From Patescibacteria group bacterium (GTDB taxonomy: Bacteria; Patescibacteriota; Minisyncoccia; Phycocordibacterales; UBA918), in assembly GCA_040386275.1 (NCBI GenBank), contig JAZKFU010000008.1, positions 6,853 through 70,852 of the forward strand: a stretch of DNA of 64,000 bases, given 5' to 3'. Position 1 is the stretch's first letter; each line of letters opens with the position of its first letter. This document shows, one piece after another, positions 9,369-59,680 of the stretch. The translations under genes and the position numbers were made by a program. The notes beneath the pieces are model-generated. The model was not told the origin of the DNA and did no database searches. It saw only the letters and a list, made by a program, of their open reading frames with translations.

Positions 9369-9370
9369 GG

Positions 9371-28050: not shown

Positions 28051-28083
28051 TCACCACGAGGAGGCAAGACCTCCTCGTGGTGA
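28051..28083. terminator. bidirectional terminator TCACCACGAGGAGG-caagac-CTCCTCGTGGTGA
   Basis: 13-bp perfect stem; loop and inner stem identical to the hairpin at 9344-9368. Confidence 0.7.
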
Positions 28084-28106
28084 TTTTTTTGTTGTTAATT
28101 GATGGG

Positions 28107-31146: not shown

Positions 31147-31289
31147 CTCATTTCCTTCCGAGGTTAAATCTACCAAAAACTATACTATTAATAAAATAAA
31201 TGTCAATAATTTTAGTTATCTCAAAAATATTGAGAAGTATTGGATTAAATTTTAGTTTCGTCAAAAAGTACTTAGATGCAAGGCAGTCA

Positions 31290-31330
31290 AAGAAAATAAT
31301 GCGAGCCGTACTTCTTGTACAGTGAGAATT
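31290..31330 (-). repeat. hairpin repeat family member (reverse orientation)
   Basis: gcgagCCGTACttcttGTACagtgag = reverse complement of the ctcaCCGTAC…GTACGGctc core. Confidence 0.55.
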
Positions 31331-31374
31331 TTTAAATAACCTAATTTGTTTCAAAAAGCGTTCAGATACTAGGT

Positions 31375-31454
31375 GTGAGAAAGTCTGGGAGACTTTCGTA
31401 AGACTCATTGTGGTATTTTGAAAAAATACCCAATGAGTGGATAGTTTCTGTAAG
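31375..31454 (-). ncRNA. structured RNA-like motif, copy 2
   Basis: Reverse complement gives CUUACAGAAACUAUCCA-[CUCAUUGGGUAUUUUUUCAAAAUACCACAAUGAG]-UCUUACGAA-AGUCUCCCAGACU-UUCUCAC. Confidence 0.4.
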
Positions 31455-31464
31455 AAAGAAGTAA

Positions 31465-31505
31465 AATGATGCGAGACGTACTTTTTGTACGTTGAACAGC
31501 ATTTT
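31465..31505 (-). repeat. hairpin repeat family member (reverse orientation)
   Basis: gcgagACGTACtttttGTACGTtgaac. Confidence 0.55.
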
Positions 31506-31546
31506 GCGCACCACAACAACGTAGATGAATGTTTTTTGAAACAAAT

Positions 31547-33445
31547 TTATACGATGCGGTCGGGGTTGATGGTGATGGCTACATACGGCGGCACATGTCG
31601 CAACGTGTCTATCAAATCTTTAGTATCTACACTCGGGTCAAGCCGAAGCAAACAATGCCGTAATTGCTCTTTGGCTTTGGAGTGCGGGTTGGTGTAAAAC
31701 GAGCCGGTAAGATTGTGCATGGCGAGCATCTTTTTAATTACTGCTTCGGTCTCAGTGATAACCGTAGCGTTTCCTTGCCAGGAAAAGAAAATAAACTTGG
31801 CAAACGGTGGATACTTGAGCATTTGTCTGAGGGCAATCTCATCATCATGAAAACGGTCTACTGCAGCGCGAGAGGCGTATATAAGTAAGTCATCGGTCTC
31901 GCTACGCGTTTGAATCATTACTTCGCGACTACTGTGTTCGCGAAGTTCTAAAATCATACGAAATACTGTCTCGTCGGCTCGCCAGGAGGGAATTGCGCGC
32001 ACCGCGTCGAGGGATACAATAGCCGACATACTAATGTTGGTTGGGATATAGGGCATGACCATCTGCGTGCCCAGTAAAATTGCCCCTTTTTGTTTTTCAA
32101 AATCTTTTGTCAGTTGGGTTGCGCGTTTGTGAGTGGTCGCTGTCGTGTGGTCAAAAATAGTGAGGGGAGTTTTGGGAAATACTTTGCGGCACTCATCTTC
32201 AACTTGTTGGATACCAATCCCACGTTCACGCAATCGCCAAGAACCACATTGAGCACACACATCAGCAGCCCGAACTCGTTTGCCTGAGGTGCTTGAGACA
32301 AACCATCGTTCTTCAACGTGTTCTTTGTTTAGGGTACGCAAAAGTGAGTAGGGTGTACCTGAATCAGGACAGCGAAAAATATACCCACAGTCAACACACG
32401 CAACAACTGGTGCGAGGCCGCGCCTCGCAGCAAATAAAAATACATTGTGCCTGCCTTCGAGAGTAGTTTCTATGCGCTTAATCAGTTCCGGCGAAAATAA
32501 TTGAAACGGAATATCGTTTTTAGGTTTATCGGTTTGATTGATGATGGTTAATTTCGCGGGGAGCTCGAGACGAATGGGATGTTCACCAAAAGTCTGGTAG
32601 ATATCATTTCTTCGTTTGTATTCATCTTCAGTAGCGATAAGTGTGTCACCTAAAATAATGCTGCGTTTAGTGATAGCAGCTAAAGTTTTAAGGACGGCAC
32701 GGTGGTCAAGGTGCGGTCGCGTTCGCATTACGTAATGTGGACTGGCGGCATTTTCCATAATGATGGTTGTGCTGTCGGCTCGTTCCAAATAGGCAAAGCT
32801 CGGAGTGGCGATAGTGAGGGTGGCGTGGGTGAGGTCACCAAAGGCCGTGTACGCTCGTTCACGTTCTTTTTTGGTTTGGTGGCTTGAGAAACAAATGACG
32901 CGTTCGCTAATGCCTCGTTCGAGCGCCCGTTTCATTGTATCGACGGCAGTACTTGTTGGTACAACAAGCAGGACTGATCCGCGGTGGGCAAATGCGCTAC
33001 GAATTATAGTTTGGTACTGAATGATACGGTCACCTTCACTAGCACAGAGAATTTGGGGCGTGCTATCTTCGTTGTTTATTTCATTAAGGGGAGTGCTGGG
33101 GTATGGGGCGACTCCTGTGCGGATATCAGGTGGTAAAAGACTAAATAAAATCGCTCCTCGTTTGGAAGGATTTTCAGTATACAGTTTGTCGACGGTAGCG
33201 AGTAAGCTTGGCGCAATTTTTTGGACGTCTTTTTGTTCCGGAAGTTTCCGCAGAGAAAAGGTAGCCGCTTTAAGCGCCGTTTTAGTGGTGGAAACAGCTT
33301 TGCCGTCGACGACAATGCCGCGAATAGTCTTGCCACGTACCGGAATGGCTATAATTGAACCCACATCATAGTTGGTGCTGGAAAAATACGATAAGGACTC
33401 AATTTGGATACCGCGAACGAGAGGAATTACTTCAATAACAAACAT
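31547..33445 (-). CDS. priA: primosomal protein N' (PriA helicase)
   Basis: Helicase core (LLVVPTSTAVD…), Cys-rich zinc-binding insert (CVDCGYIFRCP…CAQCGSWRL), C-terminal domain. Confidence 0.85.
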   Translation of the reverse strand: MFVIEVIPLVRGIQIESLSYFSSTNYDVGSIIAIPVRGKTIRGIVVDGKAVSTTKTALKAATFSLRKLPEQKDVQKIAPSLLATVDKLYTENPSKRGAILFSLLPPDIRTGVAPYPSTPLNEINNEDSTPQILCASEGDRIIQYQTIIRSAFAHRGSVLLVVPTSTAVDTMKRALERGISERVICFSSHQTKKERERAYTAFGDLTHATLTIATPSFAYLERADSTTIIMENAASPHYVMRTRPHLDHRAVLKTLAAITKRSIILGDTLIATEDEYKRRNDIYQTFGEHPIRLELPAKLTIINQTDKPKNDIPFQLFSPELIKRIETTLEGRHNVFLFAARRGLAPVVACVDCGYIFRCPDSGTPYSLLRTLNKEHVEERWFVSSTSGKRVRAADVCAQCGSWRLRERGIGIQQVEDECRKVFPKTPLTIFDHTTATTHKRATQLTKDFEKQKGAILLGTQMVMPYIPTNISMSAIVSLDAVRAIPSWRADETVFRMILELREHSSREVMIQTRSETDDLLIYASRAAVDRFHDDEIALRQMLKYPPFAKFIFFSWQGNATVITETEAVIKKMLAMHNLTGSFYTNPHSKAKEQLRHCLLRLDPSVDTKDLIDTLRHVPPYVAITINPDRIV

Positions 33446-36639: not shown

Positions 36640-37010
36640 CGTGCATTTCACTGCATCTACGTCGTCAGCCTACGCAACACTGCGCTCACCGTATAAAAAT
36701 ACGGCTCTCTTGCGTTACTTGTCTTCCTAGTATCTACAGCAAACTGCCCAACCGTTTCATTACTTTACATTCGACTCGCACCATTTCGTTTGAGCGCCTA
36801 GCCCCTACTGCAAAATAACCTCTTCTCTATAGGTTGATGAATATTTAAAGTACGGCTCACGCGTTCGTTCGGTCGCGCCTAGCATCTACCATAAATTAAG
36901 CAGTCCTCGGATTTTTAAATCACATATTAGCTTTAAGTGTAGAGATAAGTAAGGCTCCCTTGCGTTACTTGTCTTTCTCGTATCTACAGCAATGGGTGTG
37001 CAGAGACTGC
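36640..37010. repeat. cluster of three to four copies of the intergenic hairpin repeat family
   Basis: …ctgcatctacg…ctcaCCGTATaaaaATACGGctc…gtatctacagcaa… ; …aaaGTACGGctcacg… ; …cttgcgttacttgtctttctcgtatctacagcaa. Confidence 0.6.
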
Positions 37011-37061: not shown

Positions 37062-39830
37062 ATGTTCGAGCGTTCATCAAAACAATTTGCGTCGCCAGAG
37101 GAGGAAGTGCAATATTTGCGCGAGCGGATTGCGGTGCGCGAACGAGAAATATTAGGACGGACAACGGAAGTTGATCACGCTGATTACGAAACCATTGCCA
37201 AACAAGAGTTACACGACTATGGCATGTTTACACCCAAGGTTATTCTAAATCCCGACCACGCGTTAACTGATCATGAAGTGGCGTCTCATAAAGAAGCACT
37301 CATCACCAGTCGGGACCCGGCTGAACAAATCGTGCAAGTTGCCTTTGAAAAGGGAATTCGCAATGCGCTAACGCTTTTGGAAAAAGTATCCAACCCCTTT
37401 GTGATTGATGAAGTGCATCGGCAATTAATTGAACACATAAAACAAGGGCAAACGGTCCAAGATATGAAAGAAGGGGTACCACCCTGGGGCATATTACACA
37501 TGACGCTGTTTGAAGTGACCTTGCCCGAACTTAAGGGAGTGAATGATAAAGAGTATCAACTAGCTGATTTGGTGGGGATGATGGAGCAGTTGTTTGCGGG
37601 TATGCGCAGTATTGCACATACCGATACCCGTAATACTTTTGTGTTTGAAATTGCGGTGGCTGACAATAGTGATGACATTATTTTTTATACCGCGGTACCA
37701 ACGCAGTTCGTTACCTTGTTTGAAAAACAAACTTTGTCCCTATTCCCGCATGCCGTAATTATCGAACAGCTCCATGACTACAATATTTTTGTACCTAATG
37801 GTACGAGTATTATTGCTGATGTCACCTTAGAGAAACATCCCATTTATCCATTACGCAGTTACGATCAATTTAGTGCTGATCCACTCAATGTAATTTTAAA
37901 TGCTTTTTCAAAAATCGAACGCGAAGGAGGAGGTGCGGCGATGCAATTTATTGTCCGGTATCCAAAAAACGATTACCGTAAAACGTATTCCGAAATATTA
38001 AAGAAAGTGCAAAAAGGCACCAAGCCAAAAGAAGCCATTGCGCGCAGTACGATTGGTGGCGAAATCGGAGCGTCGGTTTCTGAGTTGTTTTTCTCTAAAC
38101 CAAAAAAAGAAGGGGAGTATGAACCACCAAAGGAAGTAGATACTGAAGCGGTAGAATTATTCTCTAAAAAAATTACGAGTCAGATAGTCGAAACTAATAT
38201 TCGGATTGCGGTTTCAGCTACCGTGCCTCACCGAGCTGGTCAAATCATGTCTGAGCTTGCCGCCACCCTGCATCAATTTGCGACGGTTGATAGTAACCAG
38301 TTTGTCATTACTGAACGAAAGGGAACTGCTCTTAAGGTAGCCGAGAAAGCATTTTCATTCCGAGAATTTAATCCTAAAGTCACCATTCCGTTGTCCTTGA
38401 CTGAATTATCTACCATCATGCACTTTACGGGTAATGGTATCTCAACGTCGCCACAATTTAAACAATCAGGCGCCCTGACCGCAGCTGCACCAACTGAAAC
38501 TCCGACCGAGGGGACTCTGCTTGGGATAAACAAACACCGCAACTTGGAGAAGAAAATATTTATGACCGAGAAGGACCGCATGCGCCATTTCTACGTCATT
38601 GGGCAAACCGGTACCGGTAAGTCAGTGTTTTTGAAAAACCTCATTACACAGGATATTTTGCGCGGGGACGGAGTCTGTATGATTGATCCGCACGGGACTG
38701 ATATCGTTGATATATTAGGAGCAATTCCACCGGAACGAGAAAAGGATGTGATTTATTTTGATCCCTCTAATTTGGATATGCCAATTGGGCTTAACATGTT
38801 GGAGTACGACCAAAACAAGCCCGAGCAAAAGACGTTTGTGGTTAATGAGTTGTTTTCAATTTTCCAAAAGTTATACGGTGGCAACCCAGAATCAATGGGT
38901 CCAATGTTTGAACAGTATTTCCGAAATGCGACGTTACTCGTGATGGAAGATCCCGATTCAGGAAATACCTTAATGGATATTTCGCGCGTAATGGCAGACG
39001 CCAAGTACCGTCGAATGAAATTAGAGAAAGCCAAAAATCCAGTGGTGGTGCAATTTTGGCGTGAGATTGCAACCAAAGCCGGTGGGGAGGCATCGCTCGA
39101 AAACATTGTGCCGTACATCGTATCTAAATTTGATGTGTTTACCGCCAACGATTACATGCGTCCAATTATTGGCCAGCAAAAATCAGCGTTTAATTTCCGT
39201 GAAATCATGGATGAGAAAAAAATTCTTCTCGTGAATCTTTCTAAAGGACGATTGGGTGAGATTAACGCTAACTTAATTGGGATGATAATTGTCGGCAAGC
39301 TGTTGATGGCGGCGTTGTCTCGCGTAGATAATGAAGCGATGGATTTCCCACCGTTTTATTTACACATTGATGAGTTCCAAAACGTATCAACACCGTCAAT
39401 TGCCTCAATTTTGTCTGAAGCGCGCAAGTACAAATTAAGTCTCACCATGGCCCATCAGTTTATTGCTCAGCTTGATACTGATATTAAAGATGCGGTGTTT
39501 GGTAACGTAGGCTCTATAGCGTCATTCCGAATTGGTTCAGATGACGCGCAGTTTTTAGAGAGTCAATTTGCTCCCGTATTCCAAGCATCAGATTTAATGC
39601 AGGTACCTAATTACAACGCGATGATTAAAATGCTCGCTAATGGTACGCCAACTAAACCGTTTAGTTTAGCCACGATGCCACCGTTTACCGCCAATAGTAG
39701 TAAGGTGGCCGAACTTAAATCTCGTTCAGCACAACGGTATGGACGCCCGAGAGCCGAAGTAGAAGCTGAAATTGACGCTCGCTATGTGAAAGAGCCACTG
39801 TTGCCACCACCACTTAGTGGTATGATGTAG
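37062..39830 (+). CDS. VirB4/TraC/TraG-superfamily (type IV secretion-like) P-loop ATPase, 922 aa
   Basis: Walker A GQTGTGKS, Walker B LHIDEFQNV, C-terminal ARKYKLSLTMAHQFIAQLD (RKY…Q motif of T4SS ATPases); about 500-aa N-terminal domain without homology I can name. Confidence 0.55.
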   Translation: MFERSSKQFASPEEEVQYLRERIAVREREILGRTTEVDHADYETIAKQELHDYGMFTPKVILNPDHALTDHEVASHKEALITSRDPAEQIVQVAFEKGIRNALTLLEKVSNPFVIDEVHRQLIEHIKQGQTVQDMKEGVPPWGILHMTLFEVTLPELKGVNDKEYQLADLVGMMEQLFAGMRSIAHTDTRNTFVFEIAVADNSDDIIFYTAVPTQFVTLFEKQTLSLFPHAVIIEQLHDYNIFVPNGTSIIADVTLEKHPIYPLRSYDQFSADPLNVILNAFSKIEREGGGAAMQFIVRYPKNDYRKTYSEILKKVQKGTKPKEAIARSTIGGEIGASVSELFFSKPKKEGEYEPPKEVDTEAVELFSKKITSQIVETNIRIAVSATVPHRAGQIMSELAATLHQFATVDSNQFVITERKGTALKVAEKAFSFREFNPKVTIPLSLTELSTIMHFTGNGISTSPQFKQSGALTAAAPTETPTEGTLLGINKHRNLEKKIFMTEKDRMRHFYVIGQTGTGKSVFLKNLITQDILRGDGVCMIDPHGTDIVDILGAIPPEREKDVIYFDPSNLDMPIGLNMLEYDQNKPEQKTFVVNELFSIFQKLYGGNPESMGPMFEQYFRNATLLVMEDPDSGNTLMDISRVMADAKYRRMKLEKAKNPVVVQFWREIATKAGGEASLENIVPYIVSKFDVFTANDYMRPIIGQQKSAFNFREIMDEKKILLVNLSKGRLGEINANLIGMIIVGKLLMAALSRVDNEAMDFPPFYLHIDEFQNVSTPSIASILSEARKYKLSLTMAHQFIAQLDTDIKDAVFGNVGSIASFRIGSDDAQFLESQFAPVFQASDLMQVPNYNAMIKMLANGTPTKPFSLATMPPFTANSSKVAELKSRSAQRYGRPRAEVEAEIDARYVKEPLLPPPLSGMM

Positions 39831-39836
39831 GTATTT

Positions 39837-42314
39837 ATGGAGCGACAGCCGACTGTAATTCGTCCCAACATTGTGTCTTCTGAGGCTTTTTTGCAGCCTC
39901 CGGTGAATAATGAGCGAATTGAACCCCAAGCAATTGATCCAGCCTACCCACGGTACGAAAAAACTACTACAGAAATACTGCCCACCATCCCAACTAAAAT
40001 TGTTCCCATTATTCCAGAAAATATTGTAGTGATGGATGCGTCATTACAAGCGCTCAAAAAATTTATTGATAATCCGGTTACGGCCGAAGAAATTCCCAAC
40101 AAAGAAGCATTTATGCGGAATGTTTTTCCATGGATTGTTAACGCGCTTTCAAACGCCGAATATGATGCTGCCGGAATTGATGCATTTTTAAAGCAATCAA
40201 TTGATACGATTGATTTTCACGCCCCAACCGAAAAATATTTACATGATATCAACCGAGTGTTACAAAATATCTGGAAGCAGGTAGTGGTAGAAAAAGGAGC
40301 TACACCGCATGAGGTACGACCGGTAGTGCCTGTTAGTGAACCTTTACTGCTTACGAAAAAGGAACAAGTACAAGATATACTTGTTTCAAGTGGCCCAATG
40401 GTAGAAAAGGTTGATGCAAGCAAAGTGTCCAGCGCGACTACAAAAGCGTTTGAGAATACATTAGAATCTTTGGATAGCGAGCCGTTTAATCGAGAAGCGT
40501 ATTTGCAGTTTGTGTATGAAGTACATACGTCACTTCGTGATCGGTATGATGCGGTAACAAAAAGTGCTCAACAAAATCTCAAACGGTATAGCGAATTTTA
40601 CACACCTTCACCAACCGAAAAAGAAGCGTTACAGTTTTTGTCTACCCTTAAATCACAGTATGTACGTTTGCAGTCAAAAAACTCGCTTTTGGGAGTTACG
40701 CGCGCTGAAGTAATGAATAGCTTAAATAAAACTGATGGGTTTACCAAAGAAGACGAGGTGAAAACATTTATCCATGATTACCTCGCGGGGACAGAAAATT
40801 TGTTTACCAGTATTGAACGGCTCGAAGCAATGATTGAGTCGGCTAAAGGAGAAGAAAAGCCAGCCTTGGGCGAGGCGTACCGCACCCAGTTTGAAAGTTT
40901 GCGTGTTGCCGGTGAAAAAATTCTCACCACGTTACCTACCAGTCATCCACTGTATAACGATTTTAAAGTAGTAGTTGAAAAAGGGATAGGGGATTTAATT
41001 ACGGCCGCGGCCGTAGAAAATAACGGAGACAAAGCAGTCCTCGAGCGTTCATCATATTTTATAATTTTGCGTGACCGGGTAAAAGCATCTATCGCGTATA
41101 TTCAAGCGGAGCAAGAATTTGAAAACTTTAAACAACGACAACTTCGGTTAGTGCAAACATTAGAGTCGTCCCTAACGGCTGGCACCGAAATGTTACCGCA
41201 AGAAAAGGTAGTGCTTAAAAAAACAATTCTTGAAAATATTGAAAAGATTAATCATGCGCTTACTAAAGCGGGTGCCTTGCCCGCGGGCGCCAGTTTGTTG
41301 TCATTATCGCAATCAACTCTAGAGAGCGCCACAAAAGACTTTGCGACTGAACGTGAACAAGTGAAGTTGCTGTTGGGTGAAACAAAAGAAATCCTGAAAG
41401 AATTACAAAACGATACATCGTTATTGATGACTACCGAGTCACCAGATACAGAGAAAGTGAGTGAGTCAGTGCCAGAGCCAACTCCAGTAGTAGACGCCAT
41501 ACTAGTGCCGTTACATGAACGTTCGCAAAGGTACGCATCGGAAATTTCTGAATCGGCAGTTAGTCGTGACCGTTTACGTCAAATCCGCTCACTTTTTAAA
41601 CCAGCGCGTATCGGGATGTTGGCTCTTGTAGCCGCTGCGTTTGGTTCAGATCAATATAAACCAACTAACACTAATGGGGGAGCATTATCACTTTCTACGT
41701 TAATGGGTGTATCAACTTCCGCTATCACCCCGGAATTATCGCTTGATAGAATGGCGATTGAAGAATTTTTAAAGCATGCAACGCAATCTAAAGAAGAGGT
41801 ACAAGGAAACGTTGACAGTCTGCCGTTGGTAGAAATTCCTAAGCTGACATCGATACCTGAAGTGACTGAAGAAGTGCCGGGGGTAGTGTTGCCTTCTACG
41901 GTGTATTCTGTGCCTGAAGCAAATATTCCACGGGAATTAAAAATATTTGGTGCAGCTGACACGATACCGTTTGACCCGAAAATGAGTTTTAATTCGCCAA
42001 CCCAATCAGAACAAGGAGCGATGTATACCGAAAAAGACTTTCATACCCTACAGTACGGCGATATATTTTGGGATATTAGTGAAGGCGAGACGCTTGCCGG
42101 GACGTTGCCGGTAATGAAGCAAATCAATCCTTATTTTAAGCAGCATCTGATTGATCGTCTGCGAGATCGAATCAACAAGAGTCCTGAATTACGTAAAAAA
42201 ATTGGTGGCTTTGGCGATACCGCTAATGAATTAGTTACCGGAGCACGTATGAATCTCAAAGTCCTTAATGAAGAGTTTACGATAGAAGCAGTTAACGCGG
42301 GTTATTTACAATAA
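39837..42314 (+). CDS. large hypothetical protein (825 aa), mostly alpha-helical with one probable TM segment
   Basis: Starts 7 bp after the ATPase gene; coiled-coil-like; hydrophobic stretch ARIGMLALVAAAFG. Confidence 0.55.
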   Translation: MERQPTVIRPNIVSSEAFLQPPVNNERIEPQAIDPAYPRYEKTTTEILPTIPTKIVPIIPENIVVMDASLQALKKFIDNPVTAEEIPNKEAFMRNVFPWIVNALSNAEYDAAGIDAFLKQSIDTIDFHAPTEKYLHDINRVLQNIWKQVVVEKGATPHEVRPVVPVSEPLLLTKKEQVQDILVSSGPMVEKVDASKVSSATTKAFENTLESLDSEPFNREAYLQFVYEVHTSLRDRYDAVTKSAQQNLKRYSEFYTPSPTEKEALQFLSTLKSQYVRLQSKNSLLGVTRAEVMNSLNKTDGFTKEDEVKTFIHDYLAGTENLFTSIERLEAMIESAKGEEKPALGEAYRTQFESLRVAGEKILTTLPTSHPLYNDFKVVVEKGIGDLITAAAVENNGDKAVLERSSYFIILRDRVKASIAYIQAEQEFENFKQRQLRLVQTLESSLTAGTEMLPQEKVVLKKTILENIEKINHALTKAGALPAGASLLSLSQSTLESATKDFATEREQVKLLLGETKEILKELQNDTSLLMTTESPDTEKVSESVPEPTPVVDAILVPLHERSQRYASEISESAVSRDRLRQIRSLFKPARIGMLALVAAAFGSDQYKPTNTNGGALSLSTLMGVSTSAITPELSLDRMAIEEFLKHATQSKEEVQGNVDSLPLVEIPKLTSIPEVTEEVPGVVLPSTVYSVPEANIPRELKIFGAADTIPFDPKMSFNSPTQSEQGAMYTEKDFHTLQYGDIFWDISEGETLAGTLPVMKQINPYFKQHLIDRLRDRINKSPELRKKIGGFGDTANELVTGARMNLKVLNEEFTIEAVNAGYLQ

Positions 42315-42323
42315 TTATTTGGT

Positions 42324-42614
42324 ATGCACATTACACCCACTATGATGCAAGAGATATCGCAGGTACTGCAAATTGATACGCTATCAGAAGCAGAGCAAAA
42401 TGCTCTTAATGAACGAGTAGGAAATGAAGTGTTGGAAAATACCTTGCTTTTGTATTTGAACGGGTTAAATGAGTGGGAACAATCTTCGTTTCAACAATGG
42501 ATAACTGCTCATGCTGGTGATGCTGATATGATGGCCGATTTATTATTGCTGTATCCTGATTTTGGAAAAATACTCTCCCAACAAATAATATTACTTGCCC
42601 AAAAATCTCAGTAA
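42324..42614 (+). CDS. small hypothetical protein (96 aa)
   Basis: Tightly linked ORF in the same cluster. Confidence 0.4.
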   Translation: MHITPTMMQEISQVLQIDTLSEAEQNALNERVGNEVLENTLLLYLNGLNEWEQSSFQQWITAHAGDADMMADLLLLYPDFGKILSQQIILLAQKSQ

Positions 42615-42662
42615 TATATTTTTACGTTTCAGTAATACACAGGTGATGGTGAGTGGTCAGTA

Positions 42663-44441
42663 ATGACTGACAGATATCAATGGTATGATAGGGTATCTAT
42701 GACAGCAGACGTACGTTCTTTGCAGGCGACAGTGCCTGAAACATTTGATTTTGATTCTCAGTCGGGAATACTTTTTATTCTGCGTGCCATTCGTGTTGCT
42801 CCGATTGAACAAGCGGTTAAAAACTCGCTTAAAGACCAAGTTTTTTTGTATAACACCGGTGCCAAAGACCCAACAATTAAACAAAAATTAGAACAAAGTC
42901 TTCATGATGCAGCGGTGACTCCAGAAGTAGTTGCGCATGATATCGCGCGGACGGCTGAAGCTACAAAAGCGACGGTAGAGACCGCACCAGTTTCTGGGTT
43001 TGGGTTGGGTAGATTAGCACCAGTTTTTGCGACCAGTGCCGTTACGAGCGAACCAGTGTCCGCACCTGTGGCAAATGTCACTGACGCCCCAATTAAAAAA
43101 ATTGCACCGAGCATCCCGATGCCTTCTCGACCAGTAGTAGCGGTACCGGTTGCACCAACTATTGTTAAAGTTTCAGTACCAACCGCACCAAGTGCTGATC
43201 AAGCTCTTGTTGATGTGGTGGTTCCCGAAAAAAATCCTGAACCAATTGTACCGGTGGCACCAGTAGTTCCGATTGCAGTGGTGGCTCCAGCTCCCGTTGC
43301 TCCGCCAGTTATAGCTCCAGAACCGGTAGCTCCGCAAGCACCCACTATGTCACATGATGCAGCCTCCCGCATGGAGCGAATTCGGGTAATAAAATCTACC
43401 GTTAATGACCGCATTGGTAATCCCGTTAATTTGGTGGATGTCGACAATGGGTTAGGACGTGAATATATGAGTGCCTTGCTTGAAGCCATGAAGTTACTCA
43501 GCAGTGCTTCTGAAGCCGAATCTATGCAGGCTATGAATCGGTTGGAGTCTGTCTACACGCAAGTGCTCACGTTACTTGATACCTTAGAAGCAAAATCGCA
43601 ACCGGCCCCCGTTGCTGCACCAGCCCCCGCACCAACTCCTGTGATTACGCCAATTACTCCGGTACCTCCTATCAGTGCTCCGGTTGTTCCAGCTCCTATG
43701 GTGGATGCGTCTGCGGTTGAACGAATTGCTCCGGTAGTCCCTCTGGCAGCAGCACCGGTAGCGCAAACCCCGGCACCTGACTTTTTAATGCGCAGTAAAG
43801 TAGTTGATAAGATTGTTCCGGAAGGTCCGGTGAGTGGTTGGAGTCAGAGTGAACAGGTTGAGAGTGTATCACCAGTAGCTTCGATGGAGACACTTGATTC
43901 GGTTGCTAATCGGGTCGCACCTCAAGATGCGGTAGTGGTTAATCGTTTATCAACCCCTCCAGCCGAACCCCTACGACAAATTAAAGCTACTAGTGTGCCG
44001 TCATACCAACCTGAATCGGTACAGTCAGTTACTGATCAAGCGGCGCCATTACGTAATTTAAGCGAACTTAAAACTGCTGATGAAGTGAGTGCTATTGAGG
44101 CGATGCAAAACAATCCTTTGTATACCAAAGATGTAGATGCAGGCCTGGAGCAGTTACTAGGAGAATGGTCAATCTTTAAAAAGAGTGGACTGTTTGGTAC
44201 GGGACCTAAAGGACGGGAACACCCGTTGTACCAAAAAATTTCCACCATGCACCTTCCGCTAATTTTGGCAGGACGATTTGAAGGATCAACCCAAGAAATA
44301 AAGCAAAGTATTACCGACTATATGAACGGTTGGCGCTATGAACAGGGAATTGTCTATGATCAGGGAGAGACACTTGATCAGTATTTGCGCCGTGTCATCC
44401 GCCATATCATTGATTTGCAGAAATCTAAACGTCGTCCATAA
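42663..44441 (+). CDS. Pro/Ala/Val-rich hypothetical protein (592 aa)
   Basis: Two long PAPVxP low-complexity linkers separating globular segments. Confidence 0.5.
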   Translation: MTDRYQWYDRVSMTADVRSLQATVPETFDFDSQSGILFILRAIRVAPIEQAVKNSLKDQVFLYNTGAKDPTIKQKLEQSLHDAAVTPEVVAHDIARTAEATKATVETAPVSGFGLGRLAPVFATSAVTSEPVSAPVANVTDAPIKKIAPSIPMPSRPVVAVPVAPTIVKVSVPTAPSADQALVDVVVPEKNPEPIVPVAPVVPIAVVAPAPVAPPVIAPEPVAPQAPTMSHDAASRMERIRVIKSTVNDRIGNPVNLVDVDNGLGREYMSALLEAMKLLSSASEAESMQAMNRLESVYTQVLTLLDTLEAKSQPAPVAAPAPAPTPVITPITPVPPISAPVVPAPMVDASAVERIAPVVPLAAAPVAQTPAPDFLMRSKVVDKIVPEGPVSGWSQSEQVESVSPVASMETLDSVANRVAPQDAVVVNRLSTPPAEPLRQIKATSVPSYQPESVQSVTDQAAPLRNLSELKTADEVSAIEAMQNNPLYTKDVDAGLEQLLGEWSIFKKSGLFGTGPKGREHPLYQKISTMHLPLILAGRFEGSTQEIKQSITDYMNGWRYEQGIVYDQGETLDQYLRRVIRHIIDLQKSKRRP

Positions 44442-44450: not shown

Positions 44451-45077
44451 ATGATTCGTCATCACGCACTGTTACTCCAGGGGAAGTCTTTTACTGACAG
44501 TGAATATTTCACCCGTGATTTTGATTCTACTTCAGAATATGAAGTCTTTCACTTTGAAACCCTCTCAATCGGGGAAGTGCGAAAAATAATTCAAGCTGCC
44601 TACGTAAAGCCATTTCATGGTGAAGTCAAAACCATGGTTTTAGAAGCGCAGTCAATTGCCATTGAAGCCCAGCACGCGCTCTTAAAGGTTCTCGAGGAAC
44701 CACCGCTGACCACCCAGTTTATTTTAGTACTTAATTCAACCGAGGGGTTGTTGCCGACATTACTGTCCCGGGTGATGCAACCGGCGGACACAAGTCGGTT
44801 ACCGAGAACAACCAATTCATTTTTTACCATATTTCAAACCAGTTCGTACGCAGCGCGGCTCGATGTTATTAGTCGAATTACTAAAGACAAAGATGTTAGT
44901 CAAATAGATTTACTCCGCGATGGGATATTGTGGTATTTAGAACAACAACCTCCAACTCCGAGTTCTGCAGTGATGCTCGACTGTGTCACTAAATTAAACC
45001 TCCGTGGGTCATCAAAAAAAATGCTGTTGGAAGAGATAGCGTTGACGTTGCCTATCACTAATCCTGAAACTAAATAA
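44451..45077 (+). CDS. holB: DNA polymerase III delta-prime-like subunit (minimal, no Walker A)
   Basis: HALLLQG, ALLKVLEEPP and LLPTLLSRV correspond to HolB HALLIQA / ALLKTLEEPP / LLATLRSRC. Confidence 0.55.
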   Translation: MIRHHALLLQGKSFTDSEYFTRDFDSTSEYEVFHFETLSIGEVRKIIQAAYVKPFHGEVKTMVLEAQSIAIEAQHALLKVLEEPPLTTQFILVLNSTEGLLPTLLSRVMQPADTSRLPRTTNSFFTIFQTSSYAARLDVISRITKDKDVSQIDLLRDGILWYLEQQPPTPSSAVMLDCVTKLNLRGSSKKMLLEEIALTLPITNPETK

Positions 45078-45081
45078 TAAA

Positions 45082-45284
45082 GAAGCTATGAAAACGGCAC
45101 ATTGCGTTGTCACTGCTGCGGTACATTTCCTTCCGCCGTGAGAAAGTCTGGGAGACTTTCGCAAGAGGTTGCCAGCTCTTTTGTAAAAGAGCGATAACCT
45201 GAACAGCTTCTGTAAGAAGCAAGAAGTACGTCTACAGAAAATGTCCTTGCGTTCCTAGCACTGCACTCGTTTTCATAGCTTCTT
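45082..45284. mobile_element. MITE-like element with perfect 16-bp terminal inverted repeats
   Basis: agaagctatgaaaacg (45082-45097) and cgttttcatagcttct (45269-45284) are exact reverse complements; interior carries structured-motif copy 3 and a hairpin-repeat fragment. Confidence 0.45.
45138..45216 (-). ncRNA. structured RNA-like motif, copy 3
   Basis: Reverse complement gives CUUACAGAAGCUGUUCA-[GGUUAUCGCUCUUUUACAAAAGAGCUGGCAACC]-UCUUGCGAA-AGUCUCCCAGACU-UUCUCAC. Confidence 0.4.
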
Positions 45285-45330
45285 ATGATATACTCATAAA
45301 AACAACAATATAAATTAATTTGACCACGGT

Positions 45331-45878: not shown

Positions 45879-46976
45879 ATGTCAACCATCCTCATTTTTT
45901 TGGCTGTATTGTTCGTACTCATTTTAGTCCATGAATGGGGGCATTTTATTGTTGCCAAGTTAACCAAAATGCGCGTTGACGAATTTGCGATTGGCTTTCC
46001 ACCGCGATTATTCTCGTGGAAACGAGGGGAAACTGAATACAGTTTAAATGCATTGCCATTAGGTGGTTATGTTCGTATTTACGGGGAAGACCCAACAGCT
46101 GTCGCAGGAACTGATCCTGATAGTGCCCGCGCGTTTGGATCACGACCAAAATGGGCTCAGGCATTAGTGTTAATTGCCGGGGTAACCATGAACTGGATTT
46201 TTGCCTGGCTATTGCTCGTAATTATTATGTTGGTCGGTGTGCCTACTCAAATTGAGGAACAAAACGCCACACCACAATCCGTGGTCTATATTGATAGTGT
46301 ATTACCGGGAGCCCCCGCTGATACCGTATTACCGCCTCAATCAAAAATCGTAAGCGTCGTACAAGGTGACAATGAGCTCTCGCCCATACTCCCGTCAACC
46401 TTTAGTGACTTTGTAGCCGAAAATGCGGGTAACGCAATTGATGTGACCTACGAAACCAGTGCCGGTGTAGTAGAAACAGCAACACTTATTCCGCAAACTG
46501 GCGTTATTGAAAGTTCGCCTGATCGAGCGGCGTTGGGAGTTGGATTGACGCTTGTTGATACCGTTAAGAAATCATTTGGCGATGCAATTATTGAAGCGAG
46601 TGTACAAACTTACACTCTGACGAAAGCGATAACCGTAGGGTTATTTAGTTTAATTGGTTCAGTATTTCAAGGAGACGCTGACTTTTCACAAGTGTCGGGA
46701 CCAGTGGGAATTGTAAAGTACGTAGGGGAAGCTGCTTCGGTAGGGCTCACCTCATTGTTATTTTTCACCGCGATAATTTCTATTAACTTAGCGGTAATAA
46801 ACTTATTACCAATCCCTGCGCTTGACGGCGGACGGTTAGTGTTTGTAGCTATAGAAGCTATCACTCGTCGACCAATTCCACCGGTTTGGGCTTCGAGAGT
46901 TAACTTGGTTGGGTTTGCGGCTTTGATGCTGCTGATGCTAGCAGCAACCATCAGCGACATTAACAAGTTGTTTTAA
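45879..46976 (+). CDS. rseP: RIP metalloprotease RseP (site-2 protease)
   Basis: HEWGHFIVAKL HExxH motif, PDZ-like middle region, NLLPIPALDGGRLVF motif. Confidence 0.85.
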   Translation: MSTILIFLAVLFVLILVHEWGHFIVAKLTKMRVDEFAIGFPPRLFSWKRGETEYSLNALPLGGYVRIYGEDPTAVAGTDPDSARAFGSRPKWAQALVLIAGVTMNWIFAWLLLVIIMLVGVPTQIEEQNATPQSVVYIDSVLPGAPADTVLPPQSKIVSVVQGDNELSPILPSTFSDFVAENAGNAIDVTYETSAGVVETATLIPQTGVIESSPDRAALGVGLTLVDTVKKSFGDAIIEASVQTYTLTKAITVGLFSLIGSVFQGDADFSQVSGPVGIVKYVGEAASVGLTSLLFFTAIISINLAVINLLPIPALDGGRLVFVAIEAITRRPIPPVWASRVNLVGFAALMLLMLAATISDINKLF

Positions 46977-46989
46977 CGGCTTTCGTAAG

Positions 46990-47095
46990 CGGCGCACTTC
47001 TGCGTTGAATTTCATAAAATAAACTTCAACGTACAAAAAGTACGCCTCAGCTTATTTTCTTCATTCGCCTTGAATTGCATCCACTTACAAAACCC
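46990..47095. repeat. intergenic hairpin repeat family member (variant AACGTAC…GTACGCC)
   Basis: ttctgcgttgaatttcataaaat…tcaACGTACaaaaaGTACGCctc…attttcttca…ccttgaattgcatc. Confidence 0.6.
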
Positions 47096-47144
47096 TCACA
47101 AGTCTAAACTTGGAGAATTTATTTTTTAATGGTATTTTTAAAAT

Positions 47145-52982: not shown

Positions 52983-53004
52983 AGGGGGTGAAAGTCCAAA
53001 AATA

Positions 53005-53090
53005 ATTTTATACTGCGTTGCCTGCATTATTTTAGTCCTCACCGTACAAAAAGTACGGCTCGAACAAAAATAACTAGTCGCCTTGTCTAA
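53005..53090. repeat. intergenic hairpin repeat family member
   Basis: tactgcgttgcctgcattatttt…tcaCCGTACaaaaaGTACGGctcgaac…. Confidence 0.65.
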
Positions 53091-53131
53091 AAAGATTTTT
53101 GAACTTCCATCGATGAATTACATTTTATTTC

Positions 53132-53162
53132 AAAAAACCAATCGCTTTGCGATTGGTTTTTT
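53132..53162. terminator. bidirectional terminator aaaaaACCAATCGCtttgGCGATTGGTttttt
   Basis: Perfect hairpin with flanking A/T runs. Confidence 0.65.
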
Positions 53163-53227
53163 GTTGTGGATGTTTATAAATGTGGTAGTGTTTATGCGGA
53201 ATCGACATTCTCATGCAGGAGCTTTAG

Positions 53228-53503
53228 ATGGAACAGATGGACAGAATTGCGCATTTGACGTATTCGATACAACATAATCCAAATTGTCCGAGTAAATATT
53301 TGATTCGGTTAATTGGGGATGAAGCGGGAATAATTGATAATCTCCCTCATAGTTCGTATATAGTAAAAAGAACTAATGACAGATTATTTTACGGCAAGAC
53401 TTTAGAAGAGGCGATTGATAAAGTGCTGGCTGATGAACGAGTGGCTCGCACTCGCCGAATGCAAAAGATGCACTATAAACCCTCATTAGTCTTGCAGGAA
53501 TAA
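53228..53503 (+). CDS. hypothetical protein (weak)
   Basis: AT-rich 91-aa ORF without family assignment. Confidence 0.2.
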   Translation: MEQMDRIAHLTYSIQHNPNCPSKYLIRLIGDEAGIIDNLPHSSYIVKRTNDRLFYGKTLEEAIDKVLADERVARTRRMQKMHYKPSLVLQE

Positions 53504-53712
53504 TATTTTAAAATCGACCTTTCCGTACCACGGGGAGGTCTTATTTTAAATACCACTTAATTTTAAATAGACTTACGATAATAGATGCAGTTCTAGACGA
53601 CGTGTTAAAAATGCTGCGAGGCGTATCGAGTATACGATGAGTGGCATTTTTGACTCGTCACCAACGAAATGCGCTATTTGCGTAAGTTGCTGTTACCCGC
53701 TAATATACACAA

Positions 53713-55212
53713 ATGTCTACACATGATGACCTAATGAACGAACGTCGGAAAAAGCGGGATGTGCTTGTGGCGGCGGGGATGAACCCTTACACAGCCAAGG
53801 CCAATGCTACTCACACAAATGGGGTTGTTTTAGAGAAGTTTAGCGAACTAGTCGCTTCGGGAGAATCAGTTACTATTGCCGGGCGGGTGATGGCTTTGCG
53901 CTTGCATGGAGCGCTTGCGTTTGCTGATATCTTTGATGGCTCGGCTCGCGTACAGGCGATGTTTACCAAAGAGAACATCGGTGAAGAACTATTTGCCCTC
54001 TTTGTAGATACTATTGATGGGGGAGATTTTATTGAAATAACGGGGAATGCGTTTATTACTAAACGCGAAACCCAGGCGCTACAAGTGGCGTCATGGCGTA
54101 TTTTAACGAAGTCTCTTGCTCCATTACCGGCTGAACACTTTGGTATTAAGGACGAAGATATGCGGTACCGCAAGCGGTATCTCGATTTGTTGCTTGATGA
54201 TGAAGCCCGAGCCTTGTTTATTCAAAAAGCAAAATTCTGGGAAGTGACACGTCGGTTTATGGTGGATCATGGGTTTCTAGAAGTGGAAACACCCACGCTT
54301 GAAGTAACGACCGGCGGAGCTGAAGCACGTCCGTTTAAAACCTACCATAATGATTTTGATATGCAGGTGTATATGCGTATCTGTATTGGTGAACTCTGGC
54401 AGAAGCGCTTGATGGCTGCTGGCTATGCTAAAACGTTTGAAATTGGACGAGCGTATCGCAATGAGGGTACCAGTCCTGAACACCTCCAAGAATTTACCAA
54501 CTGTGAATTCTACTGGGCCTATGCTGATTACCGGGACGGCATGACGTTTGTGCGTGATCTCTACCGCACCATTGCTACCGAAGTATTTGGTACGACAAAA
54601 TTCACTATGCGGAATCACACCTTTGATTTGGCAGACGAATGGGTTGAAATTGATTATGTCGAAACCATTAAAGATAAAACGGGTATCGACATTTTAACGG
54701 CCACAACCGAGGCTATGGAAGAAAAGCTCGCAGAACTGGGAGTGAAGTACGATGGGAACAATCGCGAGCGCCTAACCGATACTCTTTGGAAGTACTGTCG
54801 CAAACAAATTGCCGGACCAGCCTTTCTCATTAATCACCCAACACTCGTGGCACCGCTTGCGAAAACACGACCGGGCACTGATACGGTTGAAATGTTCCAA
54901 CCAATTATCGCGGGAAGTGAAGTAGGGCGGGGGTACAGCGAGTTAAATGACCCGGATGACCAGCGCGCTCGGTTTGAAGCGCAAAAGAAATTGCTCGATG
55001 CAGGTGATGATGAGGCGATGATGTCTGACTGGGAATTTGTGGAGATGCTCGAACATGGTATGCCACCAACCTGCGGGTTTGGTTTTGGCGAGCGCTTGTT
55101 TGCGTTCCTCGCGGGTAAGCCACTACGTGAAGTGCAATTATTCCCGTTGATGAAACCAAAAGTTGAAGTAGAGGAACAATCGCTTCCAGACTGCGTAGCG
55201 TGTGAAGGGTAA
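53713..55212 (+). CDS. lysS: lysyl-tRNA synthetase, class II
   Basis: OB-fold N-domain plus class II motifs (FLEVETPTL…, FEIGRAYRNEG, GFGFGERL). Confidence 0.9.
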   Translation: MSTHDDLMNERRKKRDVLVAAGMNPYTAKANATHTNGVVLEKFSELVASGESVTIAGRVMALRLHGALAFADIFDGSARVQAMFTKENIGEELFALFVDTIDGGDFIEITGNAFITKRETQALQVASWRILTKSLAPLPAEHFGIKDEDMRYRKRYLDLLLDDEARALFIQKAKFWEVTRRFMVDHGFLEVETPTLEVTTGGAEARPFKTYHNDFDMQVYMRICIGELWQKRLMAAGYAKTFEIGRAYRNEGTSPEHLQEFTNCEFYWAYADYRDGMTFVRDLYRTIATEVFGTTKFTMRNHTFDLADEWVEIDYVETIKDKTGIDILTATTEAMEEKLAELGVKYDGNNRERLTDTLWKYCRKQIAGPAFLINHPTLVAPLAKTRPGTDTVEMFQPIIAGSEVGRGYSELNDPDDQRARFEAQKKLLDAGDDEAMMSDWEFVEMLEHGMPPTCGFGFGERLFAFLAGKPLREVQLFPLMKPKVEVEEQSLPDCVACEG

Positions 55213-55354
55213 ATAATATAGAAAATTGAAGAGGGAATATTGATAATATACAAAACAGTGAGAACTTTGTTCTCGCTGTTTTGTGTTATGAGGCAAAGCC
55301 TCTGTACAAAAAACACCTTTGTGTTGTTTTTTTGTTTTTTATTGGTTATCCACC

Positions 55355-55430
55355 GGGAAAGTGTGGGGAAATACTGCAGGGTGGGTCAAAGTGGTGTATA
55401 GTGTAAGTGTGGTGGGAGATAGTGGTATAC
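55355..55430 (+). promoter_or_regulatory. array of GTGG(G/T) direct repeats upstream of mraZ (candidate MraZ operator)
   Basis: gtgtgggg…gggtgggt…agtggtgt…gtgtggtggg…agtggta spaced roughly one helical turn apart. Confidence 0.35.
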
Positions 55431-55534
55431 GCGACCGCAAGGAACCGTATACAGGAGGGAGGTACTCTCTAAACCTACTGGAATCACTCCACTGATTGCG
55501 GTTGGTTTAGAGGGTACCTTCAAACTTTTAAGAT

Positions 55535-55969
55535 ATGCTAATTGGCGAATACAAGCACACGTTGGACCCCAAGAAAAGGCTGTCACTTCCGTCTAAATGG
55601 CGGGGTGAACTTGGGGCATCGCTTGTCGTCACACGCGGTCTTGATAATTGTCTCTTTGTATATCCGCTTCTTGAGTGGCAGAAAATCACCGACAAAATTG
55701 GTGAACTGCCACTGGGGACCGCGGACACCAGAAGTTTCAATCGATTCTTCTTATCAGGAGCAGTAGAGGTGGAGGTAGATTCAGTTGGACGTATTCTCGT
55801 GCCAGATTTTTTAAAGGAGTTTGCTCACTTAGACTCAAAGGTAGTCTTAGCGGGTATCCATAACCGAATAGAAATTTGGGATGAGAACAAGTGGACAGAG
55901 TACAAAGCACAAATCGAACTACAAGCAGATTCCCTCGCGGAAAAGCTCGGAGCGATTGGTGTCCTCTAA
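55535..55969 (+). CDS. mraZ: division/cell wall cluster transcriptional regulator MraZ
   Basis: MLIGEYKHTLDPKKRLSLPSKWR…, two SpoVT/AbrB-like halves. Confidence 0.9.
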   Translation: MLIGEYKHTLDPKKRLSLPSKWRGELGASLVVTRGLDNCLFVYPLLEWQKITDKIGELPLGTADTRSFNRFFLSGAVEVEVDSVGRILVPDFLKEFAHLDSKVVLAGIHNRIEIWDENKWTEYKAQIELQADSLAEKLGAIGVL

Positions 55970-58932: not shown

Positions 58933-58939
58933 TTTATTC

Positions 58940-59045
58940 CAGAATCCCTGCATCTACTGCGTTGCTGCTCAGTAAAATGAAGTTCAACGTACTAATGTAC
59001 GCCTCACTTTATTTTCTTCGCGCGTCTTGTATCTACAGCAATTCT
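58940..59045. repeat. intergenic hairpin repeat family member
   Basis: cctgcatctactgcgttgctgctcagtaaaat…tcaACGTACtaatGTACGCctc…attttcttcg…cttgtatctacagcaa. Confidence 0.65.
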
Positions 59046-59074
59046 GAAACAAATTAAAATTTGCGCCAAACTAC

Positions 59075-59175
59075 GCCCATCTGCTGCGTTGTTGCTGTTC
59101 GCTTTTTCACTCACCGTACATTTAGGTACGACTCGCAAAAAAGCGAACAGCACGCCTTGCATCTGGACGCATTTT
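59075..59175. repeat. intergenic hairpin repeat family member
   Basis: cccatctgctgcgttgttgctg…tcaCCGTACatttagGTACGActcgc…cgccttgcatctggacgc. Confidence 0.6.
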
Positions 59176-59224
59176 GACACAAATTTGGTCAAACCGGCTA
59201 CTTAAAAAATATTTTACTTTAATA

Positions 59225-59290
59225 AAAACAAAAACCGCCACCTCGTTGAAACGAAGCTTTGGCTTTCGTTTCGTGGGTAGCGGCTATATT
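59225..59290. terminator. long compound hairpin (CCGCCACC…AAACGAAGCtttgGCTTTCGTTT…GGTAGCGG)
   Basis: Nested inverted repeats downstream of the minus-strand ORF 59312-59533. Confidence 0.5.
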
Positions 59291-59311
59291 CTAGGTGGCT
59301 CCTGAAAGATT

Positions 59312-59533
59312 TCAGATTACGCGTTCAGCGAGCCATGCTTGTTCGGTAGGGAACATGCTGGAAATTTTGAAGCTGAGATCCCAGTCAAGCTGGGTACGGT
59401 CAGCTGCGGTCAGTACCACCTGGATGTCAGGATCCTTTTCCGCCAGACACTGAGGACAAGGTGTCATCGGGATGCCGTGCTTACCGCACGATCCGACTTG
59501 TTCGTCCCATTCAGGATGATAGAGATTTGGCAT
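59312..59533 (-). CDS. small Cys-rich (CxxC-type) hypothetical protein, compositionally GC-rich
   Basis: MPNLYHPEWDEQVGSCGKHGIPMTPCPQCLAEK…; visibly higher GC than flanking DNA. Confidence 0.4.
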   Translation of the reverse strand: MPNLYHPEWDEQVGSCGKHGIPMTPCPQCLAEKDPDIQVVLTAADRTQLDWDLSFKISSMFPTEQAWLAERVI

Positions 59534-59680
59534 AGTATTCTCCAAAAGTTCAATTCGAATAATATAATACACTTATTATGTATTTTTGTCAAGTAAATTC
59601 AGTATATTTGATAATTAGAGGATTTAATAATAAGACAATGCTAATATAATCAAATATATTTATAGTTTTACGAATTTACA

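Follow-up and report, generated by a model that had tools for sequence, protein, structure and literature searches.

Among the repeats described in bacterial genomes, mosaic elements such as BIME, BOX and ERIC appear to be the closest analogues of the sequence that is treated here. Repetitive extragenic palindromic sequences and bacterial interspersed mosaic elements (REP/BIME) of enterobacteria are short imperfect palindromes, which occur in many copies at the transcribed intergenic 3′-ends of genes, form mosaics and conserve structure rather than sequence. BOX elements of Streptococcus pneumoniae are built in a modular fashion from boxA, boxB and boxC, and the ERIC/IRU elements of enterobacteria carry internal insertions at fixed points. 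The genomes of the candidate phyla radiation (CPR, Patescibacteria) are very small and have generally been regarded as containing few repeats and little mobile DNA. The present analysis concerns a 64-kb stretch of the Patescibacteria contig JAZKFU010000008.1, called the window, and in it a segment of 203–205 bp between a holB-like gene and frr. An earlier note had described this segment as similar to a miniature inverted-repeat transposable element (MITE) with 16-bp terminal inverted repeats (TIRs). It is shown below that the segment consists of two nested, non-coding repeat elements that conserve their structure; it is not regarded as a TIR transposon.

The outer of the two elements belongs to a family that, like REP/BIME, comprises multi-copy imperfect palindromes in extragenic transcribed regions and forms mosaics. 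In contrast, its sequence is not similar to that of REP/BIME, its units have a far greater length (rods of about 125 nt), and they lie within a few nucleotides of a stop codon. A RAYT gene, which would encode a Y1 HUH transposase, was not found among the annotated ORFs of the window. Modularity, long stable hairpins, the intergenic location and the lack of a known mobilizing enzyme are shared with BOX and ERIC, but the module sequences are unrelated, the phylum is a different one (CPR), and the inserted module is a widespread independent unit that is also found in other contexts, including tRNA leaders. The palindromes derived from IS200/IS605 insertion sequences and the attC sites of integrons are single-stranded DNA sites recognized by their structure; they likewise fold in a strand-specific manner, tolerate G·T pairs and conserve structure while the sequence varies, and attC sites share the placement directly after open reading frames (ORFs) and the folding of the antisense strand. 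Unlike in these systems, no Y1 (HUH) transposase, TnpB or IntI was seen, consistent attC core motifs are missing, and the neighbors are syntenic housekeeping genes. The inner module resembles the families of the Rfam database in having the hallmarks of a structured RNA, namely invariant junctions and covarying stems.

Two nested elements between the holB-like gene and frr

The flanking genes named in the earlier note were confirmed by a Pfam match to PF13177 for the holB-like gene (end at 45077) and to PF01765 for frr (start at 45331). The 16-mers at 45081–45096 and 45268–45283 are exact reverse complements, as had been noted before with coordinates that were one base too far to the right (45082–45097 and 45269–45284). 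The perfect complementarity reaches 17 bp, and the whole block comprises 205 bp (Table 1). A perfect inverted repeat of at least 16 nt within 300 nt was absent from all 40 first-order Markov resamplings of the window, and therefore the 17-bp repeat is far beyond chance. The window contains only two such repeats, the second of which is a terminator-like hairpin at 28046–28088. In comparison to shuffled sequence the fold of the segment was much more stable on both strands (z = -4.7 and -6.0). The previously reported absence of an interior ORF holds true for ORFs of at least 60 aa; two overlapping minus-strand ORFs of 50 aa with TTG start codons (45012–45164 and 45070–45222) are probably spurious. 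It was also verified that the interior holds a structured motif together with the two halves of a hairpin-repeat unit.

The former 16-bp TIR is the basal helix of this copy of the outer element. A covariance model of the outer element, R2, found 11–12 copies in the window and additional matches in other Kaiserbacteria-like contigs, while no copies were found in the more distant loci L011–L016 (L numbers denote loci that were fetched for comparison). At the holB-frr locus the whole model (positions 1–108) was matched, with an insertion of about 80 nt, a score of 36.6 bits and an E-value of 3e-5, whereby the E-values of R2 and of the module model R1 are rough. The aligned copies have a common 5′ box, CTGCGTTG, and a common 3′ box, CGCCTTG.ATCT or its variant GAATTGCAC, and compensatory changes were present in 17 of the 23 predicted pairs of the stems between the boxes. 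The terminal repeat sequence is not common to the family; each copy has its own covarying outer stem, and a loose AGAC.TCCA.AAACG-like consensus is shared by the outer stems of several copies. The exact 16-bp TIR, which the earlier note had proposed to search for elsewhere, occurs only at this locus in the window, and the best other sites had three mismatches, which is the level expected by chance.

The outer family was shown to be specific for the Candidatus Kaiserbacteria lineage and to be tied to the 3′-ends of genes. It was co-oriented with the upstream ORF in 34 of 37 R2 matches, the match started 2–13 nt past the stop codon in about 29 of the 37 copies, and the repeated apical hairpin in the window, CTCACCGTAC-N4-GTACGGCTC, was always found 48–59 nt past a stop codon. 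This is not the pattern that random transposition would yield. Because canonical bidirectional terminators come after many of the copies, the outer elements lie within 3′ untranslated regions (3′-UTRs) and are not terminators themselves. A role as intrinsic terminator was also rejected on the grounds that in several copies the A-rich and U-rich sides of the inner stem have changed places, and a consensus scan for terminator-like and promoter-like sites did not exceed the chance level. Canonical bidirectional intrinsic terminators, consisting of an A-tract, a perfect GC-containing stem and a T-tract, were found at 28046–28088 and 53128–53163, and thus the organism uses ordinary terminators alongside the palindromic elements.

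The folding of the outer element exhibited a clear strand preference. All 25 simple copies folded better on the strand that is antisense to the upstream gene, with summed minimum free energies of -1263 kcal/mol (antisense) versus -868 kcal/mol (sense), and with 119 versus 41 G·U pairs. The antisense fold is a near-continuous rod of about 125 nt, in which two internal loops are conserved and the apical hairpin reads GAGCCGUAC-N4-GUACGGUGAG. Sense-strand mismatches are of the A·C type and correspond to G·U wobbles on the opposite strand, and therefore the structure has been selected on a single strand of antisense polarity. A conserved antisense promoter beside the outer elements, which could account for the bias, was not found.

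A DNA uptake sequence was rejected for the outer hairpin, since half-sites of its apical part show no enrichment within genes. The antisense apical hairpin resembles the lower stem of domain V of group II introns, but a domain V remnant was rejected, because RF00029 had no match in a region with two such hairpins at E-values up to 10, nor window-wide. In a viral collection, the apical-hairpin pattern matched only unrelated phage coding sequence. At L123 13545–13580 a "minimal" outer element was observed, in which the boxes are joined directly (CATTTATCTACGTCGTC followed by GCCTTGTATCTGC), without the central stems and the apical hairpin.

The inner module has a length of about 85 nt and the layout GU-GAGAA, hairpin 1, (C/U)GCAAGA, hairpin 2, UG(A/G)ACAG, hairpin 3, the last with the general form (C/U)UUC-UGUAA-GAA(G/A). 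A 29-nt match between 45138 and 31375 belongs to this module. The three module copies of the window scored 78–93 bits with R1, and divergent copies are located at 25018–25105 and 24893–24990, both on the minus strand. It was shown that the module is widespread and autonomous as a unit. R1 had 133 matches in 637 kb of fetched loci, often two to five per contig and sometimes as head-to-tail arrays, and a degenerate module pattern matched 91 stretches in metagenome contigs, while it had no match in the viral collection. To judge from the record names, activated-sludge assemblies and "Hain ... 01um" samples are among the module-bearing metagenomes. Arrays of two or three units are present at L061 3495–3741, L107 56–408 and L041 819–997; the 81-nt units of L061 abut without spacer, and the units of one array can differ in the sequence of hairpin 1 or hairpin 2.

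When 71 distinct module copies were aligned, 27 columns were invariant, all of them in the junctions and in hairpin 3, while the stems vary; the copies were gathered with a pattern that fixed the junctions, so that the junction invariance, unlike the stem covariation, is partly given by construction. Paired cells amounted to 96.4%, in comparison to 75% after shuffling and 38–50% when the partners were slid, and 366 cells had changed on both sides. None of 500 shuffles reached the observed values. G·U pairs outnumbered A·C pairs 47 to 10, and therefore the folding strand of the module is the one with GUGAGAA, i.e., the plus strand at 45136–45223. Taken together, both elements retain their structure by compensatory change, and the wobble is confined to one strand, which is the plus strand for the module and the strand antisense to holB for the outer element. 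None of the 4227 families of Rfam 15 overlapped the module even at E-values up to 5–10; searches of the window and 20 loci at the gathering threshold, and of three regions at permissive E-values, yielded only tRNAs, group I introns and chance matches. The module covaries as strongly as curated RNA families, yet it is absent from Rfam. A literature search on MITEs, REPs and structured RNAs in CPR/Patescibacteria, and on the module sequence, retrieved nothing relevant. If hairpin 3 (e.g., 45207–45220) is read with a 7-nt loop, the loop is invariantly CUGUAAG, which includes a UGU motif and is similar to an anticodon loop (U33, GUA triplet, A37).

The junction of the two elements was read from alignments with uninterrupted relatives, e.g., the rseP-proS elements of L007 and L009. 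The module replaces a single A of the apical loop, so that CCGT-A-CAAGAAGTACG becomes CCGT-[80 nt]-CAAGAAGTACG. Pairs with and without the module at identical junctions were found twice, L007 compared with window position 45081 and window position 53038 compared with L122. The latter pair concerns the element after greA, which lacks the module in the window and contains it in the L122 ortholog, while the flanks are otherwise nearly identical. Altogether, eleven composites with a CCGT-module-C junction were found at different loci. In the second composite of the window, downstream of a priA-like gene, the module is located between the 3′ inner stem and the 3′ box of the outer element and has the opposite relative orientation, and in the rseP-proS spacer of L002 it also occupies another place in the outer element, again in opposite orientation. 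In addition, the orientation of the module relative to neighboring ORFs is random (37 same, 45 opposite). The different insertion points together with the opposite and random orientations indicate that the module is a unit in its own right rather than a facultative part of the outer element. The earlier view that the locus at 31290–31505 is bounded by direct rather than inverted repeats had to be revised, because a perfect 15-bp inverted repeat closes this unit as well; the direct repeats are the apical hairpins of two adjacent elements.

Table 1. Coordinates of the outer (host) elements, the modules and neighboring motifs in the window.
Feature	Position	Strand	Remarks
5′ arm of the 17-bp basal stem (formerly left TIR)	45080–45096	+	begins 3 nt past the holB-like stop codon (45075–45077)
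3′ arm of the basal stem (formerly right TIR)	45268–45284	+	ends 1 nt before the TGnTAYACT motif
Extended -10-like motif TGATATACT	45286–45294	+	outside the element; TGnTAYACT kept about 35–45 nt upstream of frr in relatives
Outer (host) element at holB-frr	45088–45276	+	full-length R2 match; alignment with uninterrupted relatives
Host 5′ box	45101–45109	+	ATTGCGTTG here; family consensus CTGCGTTG
Host inner stem and apical hairpin, 5′ half	45120–45139	+	GGTACATTTCC TTCCGCCGT; the module cuts the apical stem after CCGT
Host apical hairpin and inner stem, 3′ half	45221–45246	+	AAGAAGTACGTCTACAGAAAATGTCC
Host 3′ box region	45245–45267	+	CCTTGCGTTCCTAGCACTGCACT; consensus CGCCTTG.ATYTRC / GAATTGCAC
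Nested module	45136–45223	+	R1, 92.7 bits, E 1e-21; GUGAGAA, hairpin 1, GCAAGA, hairpin 2, UGAACAG, hairpin 3
Module hairpin 1	45139–45163	+	UGAGAAAGUCU GGG AGACUUUCGCA; stem variable, covarying between copies
Module hairpin 2	45166–45200	+	GGUUGCC...GAUAACC type; other copies CUCAUUG...CAAUGAG type
Module hairpin 3	45207–45220	+	GCUUC UGUAA GAAGC; invariant UUCUGUAAGAA core; C-G/U-A covarying closing pair
Sister composite, 205 bp	31343–31547	-	directly after the priA-like stop codon; 15-bp perfect basal stem 31343–31357 / 31533–31547
Module copy within the sister composite	31373–31461	+	R1, 86.6 bits
Adjacent partial host element	31261–31344	-	R2 positions 23–108
Third module copy	25649–25739	-	after the pseudo 5′ half of tRNA-Asn, upstream of the intron-containing tRNA-Asn
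Host-family copy after rseP	46983–47090	+	best R2 score; orthologous in L006–L010
Host-family copy after greA	52996–53103	+	L122 ortholog has the module at the same CCGT/C junction
Two tandem host-family copies	58939–59177 (58939–59047, 59066–59177)	+	R2
Host-family copy	2452–2561	+	R2
Host-family copy	5984–6093	+	R2
Host-family copy after mreB	36642–36748	+	R2; then truncated 3′ half-copies at about 36848–36993
Host-family copy	53575–53683	-	R2; one of three copies not co-oriented with the upstream ORF

Insertion at the holB-frr site and differences between strains

The adjacency of holB and frr is kept in ten related species with Frr identities of 88–61%. Their spacers have lengths of only 17–69 nt and consist of little besides the TGnTAYACT motif, which is probably an extended -10 promoter of frr. 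In the window, the 205-bp block is placed exactly between the holB stop codon and this motif. The comparison supports the view that the segment is a lineage-specific insertion. Empty sites, for which the earlier note had proposed to look in relatives, are present in ten species.

Three loci with a Frr protein identical to that of the window (L001, L003, L004) contain the same block, while the strain represented by L002 and L005 has a different family member of 115 nt at this site. The arms of the L002 element have their own sequence and are still complementary to one another (TAGGACCTTAAAAACG / CGTTTTCTAAGGTCCTA). A target-site duplication was not found at the outer element, where the flanks read AAATAATA before the first A and ATGATATA after the last T of the element; a near-identical empty site for comparison was not available. 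There is also none at the module junctions, where one A is replaced.

The genes of the window and of a sister strain (L002/L123) are 94–96% identical, and the collinearity breaks exactly at spacers that bear elements, i.e., at 45077–45262, 46975–47144, 53173–53713 and 59062–59692. At greA, four alleles have the same outer stem (GGAAGTCCAAAA / TTTTGAACTTCC) and differ in the interior. Both the outer and the inner element were shown to be subject to gain, loss and exchange among close strains. The earlier proposal of a modular family was borne out: it is multi-copy, non-coding and polymorphic between closely related strains. In contrast to the usual description of CPR genomes, about one in five to six intergenic spacers of the window carries a structured palindromic element, and these are exactly the places where close strains differ.

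Two observations were made in the same comparison. The element at 58939–59047 and its counterpart at L123 13405–13513 are, including the flanks, identical over about 145 nt with a single substitution, which lies immediately upstream of the element, and the sequences diverge completely just downstream. Between a class II aminoacyl-tRNA synthetase gene (aspS/asnS-like) and mraZ, L123 contains an insertion of 3.7 kb (6003–9666) with four genes that lack a confident Pfam match, while the same site of the window (55212–55535) has only a spacer of 323 nt.

Explanations for the origin and spread of the elements

In analogy to REP/BIME, BOX and ERIC, both elements may best be viewed as selfish, non-autonomous elements that are spread or exchanged via folded single strands or by recombination between copies; a probability of roughly 60% is assigned to this explanation. 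Folded single-stranded intermediates would probably be recognized by a trans-acting factor that is encoded elsewhere, and recombination between copies would be an alternative route. For the locus itself, a likely by-product would be that the holB transcript ends in a highly stable fold, located shortly before the promoter motif of frr.

Several observations weigh against this explanation. Neither an enzyme or mechanism of mobility nor target-site duplications were found, and the sequences examined are fragments of genomes. The explanation does not account for the antisense-strand bias of the outer element, which is apparently transcribed in the sense direction. The outer copy between rseP and proS has been kept at the same position down to a Frr identity of 78%, and the copy at 58939 is 100% identical between strains that differ by 4–6% elsewhere; both facts speak for selection on a role in the host and less for a purely selfish nature. 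Furthermore, the outer stems, which are specific to their loci and at greA are common to four alleles, are equally compatible with transposition, with exchange by recombination and with a conserved function.

The main rival, less probable and not mutually exclusive with selfish spread, is that one or both of the elements are functional RNAs that have been recruited repeatedly. The outer hairpin could be a barrier for exonucleases in the 3′-UTR, a site of processing or termination, or an insulator against antisense transcription, and the module could be a protein-binding site, a self-cleaving ribozyme or an element associated with tRNA precursors. This would agree with the strongly conserved junction nucleotides and covarying stems of the module, with the G·U bias on one strand, which suggests selection on a single-stranded form, and with the conserved placement of the module upstream of tRNA-Asn, tRNA-Val and tRNA-Thr in divergent lineages. 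It would also agree with the close and strongly co-oriented association of the outer family with stop codons, with the orthologous outer elements that have been kept after rseP and greA across species, and with the one that is fully conserved between strains. However, the orientation of the module relative to the flanking genes is random, and it occurs in both orientations within the outer element, so that it cannot always be part of the same transcript as its host in a folding-competent sense. In addition, the outer element folds best opposite to the mRNA strand, truncated half-copies exist, and the ten related species do well without the holB-frr copy. In view of its invariant junctions and its conserved place in tRNA leaders, the module could be a new ribozyme or an RNA that binds a protein.

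It is somewhat more speculative that the module represents an undescribed class of small structured element, which is abundant in seemingly CPR-like genomes and propagates alone, and that the outer family, as another class restricted to this lineage, provides its landing pad. The module could then be a new self-cleaving or self-inserting RNA, or alternatively a single-stranded DNA element that is recognized by its structure and targets hairpin loops and the junction of D-arm and anticodon stem in tRNA gene copies. If the module were indeed a functional RNA or a new mobile element, it would offer a handle on gene-end architecture, on the rearrangement of tRNA loci and on strain-level plasticity in an uncultured phylum, and it would be a candidate for ribozyme or protein-binding assays. 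Even if the elements were merely selfish repeats, the two covariance models explain many "orphan" spacers in metagenome-assembled genomes of Kaiserbacteria.

A classical MITE, i.e., a deletion derivative of an insertion sequence (IS) with TIRs that bind a transposase and that is mobilized in trans by a DDE transposase, is very improbable. The MITE-like description of the earlier note is only partly right: the insertion, the perfect 17-bp terminal inverted repeat, the lack of coding capacity, the modularity, the dispersed multi-copy family with filled and empty sites and the loose consensus among several outer stems agree with it. The segment also resembles the Correia/NEMIS and RUP elements, which are TIR-type MITEs of 100–200 bp that have no ORF and occur in many copies at filled and empty sites. 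Neither a TIR shared by the family nor a flanking direct repeat is present, however, and a cognate IS was not found in the window. The outer stems differ and covary and are not the most conserved part, and the wobble bias on one strand is not expected for the recognition of double-stranded TIRs. The mobilization by a transposase that had been suggested was not supported either: the window ORFs with an annotation by Pfam or look-up include no transposase, integrase or RAYT, and both the distance to the stop codon and the orientation relative to the gene are highly non-random.

Hardly any credence can be given to a cis-regulatory leader (riboswitch or attenuator) of frr, since the highly structured element (z = -4.7) does lie upstream of frr on the same strand, but the promoter-like TGnTAYACT is located downstream of it, related species lack it, the same modules occur before or after unrelated genes in either orientation, and Rfam has no match. 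The same is true for a retron-like unit (msr/msd closed by a1/a2) or a folded bottom-strand site like integron attC, for which the inverted repeats around structured parts with wobble bias on opposite strands and the attC-like position of the co-oriented, antisense-folding outer elements at stop codons could be adduced, but genes for a reverse transcriptase or an integron integrase are not nearby (holB-like, frr and rseP are the neighbors), the module lies within a hairpin loop and not beside it, consistent RYYYAAC / GTTRRRY core sites were not present when the copies were read by eye, and the elements follow syntenic housekeeping genes and not cassettes.

Module copies beside tRNA genes and other features of the window

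For at least three tRNA species (Asn, Val and Thr), the module is embedded in a partial copy of the tRNA gene that lies upstream of the intact gene. The order of the leader is tRNA positions 1–25, module, anticodon-stem/loop part, spacer and intact tRNA. This arrangement is conserved across divergent lineages and is located downstream of a promoter-like motif, TGTACAAT. In the window it is found upstream of a tRNA-Asn(GUU) gene (25180–25505, minus strand), the anticodon loop of which is split by a group I intron (RF00028, 25229–25467, 79.9 bits). ARAGORN did not predict any tRNA in the 64 kb, and the exons of tRNA-Asn match the intact genes of L044 and L089. Several copies of the module with its anticodon-loop-like hairpin 3 reside in leaders of tRNA-Asn with the anticodon GUU.

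The 5′-half copies of the tRNAs comprise positions 1 to about 38, with the module in place of positions 25–26, and the pseudo-halves follow the acceptor-stem sequence of their own tRNA. They were observed in the window (25740–25790, minus strand) and at L044 540–660, L048 6003–6125, L082 400–560 and L033 80–440, the last of which contains the 5′ part of tRNA-Thr three times in tandem. Downstream of tRNA-Asn and its terminator, the window contains two inverted partial tRNA 3′-ends (24893–25134; T-arm and acceptor strand). A 24-nt hairpin interrupts each of them, and divergent hairpins similar to those of the module come next (R1 scores of 31.7 and 21 bits).

The 343 ORFs within 2.5 kb of modules were clustered, and a widely shared family was not found. 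The largest cluster was a large serine recombinase (Resolvase and Recombinase domains, about 600 aa), which adjoins tRNA-Asn in eight loci from about three to four independent lineages (L048 6430–7995, minus strand; L077 2165–3970, plus strand; L046, L058, L068, L073, L083 and L108) and is convergent with a tRNA-Asn that carries the pseudo-half/module leader. Because of this neighborhood, the tRNA fragments may be scars of site-specific integration and the tRNA locus an integration site, which is regarded only as a lead. A recombinase is not present in the window, and this recurrent neighbor does not explain the module copies of Kaiserbacteria.

Other genes of the window include a putative anti-phage defense gene in this CPR genome at 16782–18044 (plus strand), the product of which has a Shedu SduA C-terminal domain (PF14082, E 2e-33). 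The region 37062–44441 (plus strand) encodes a VirD4/TraG/HerA-like ATPase of 922 aa, followed by proteins of 825 aa and 592 aa without Pfam match, the smaller of which is rich in low-complexity sequence of the PAPV type. This region may be a module for secretion or DNA transfer.

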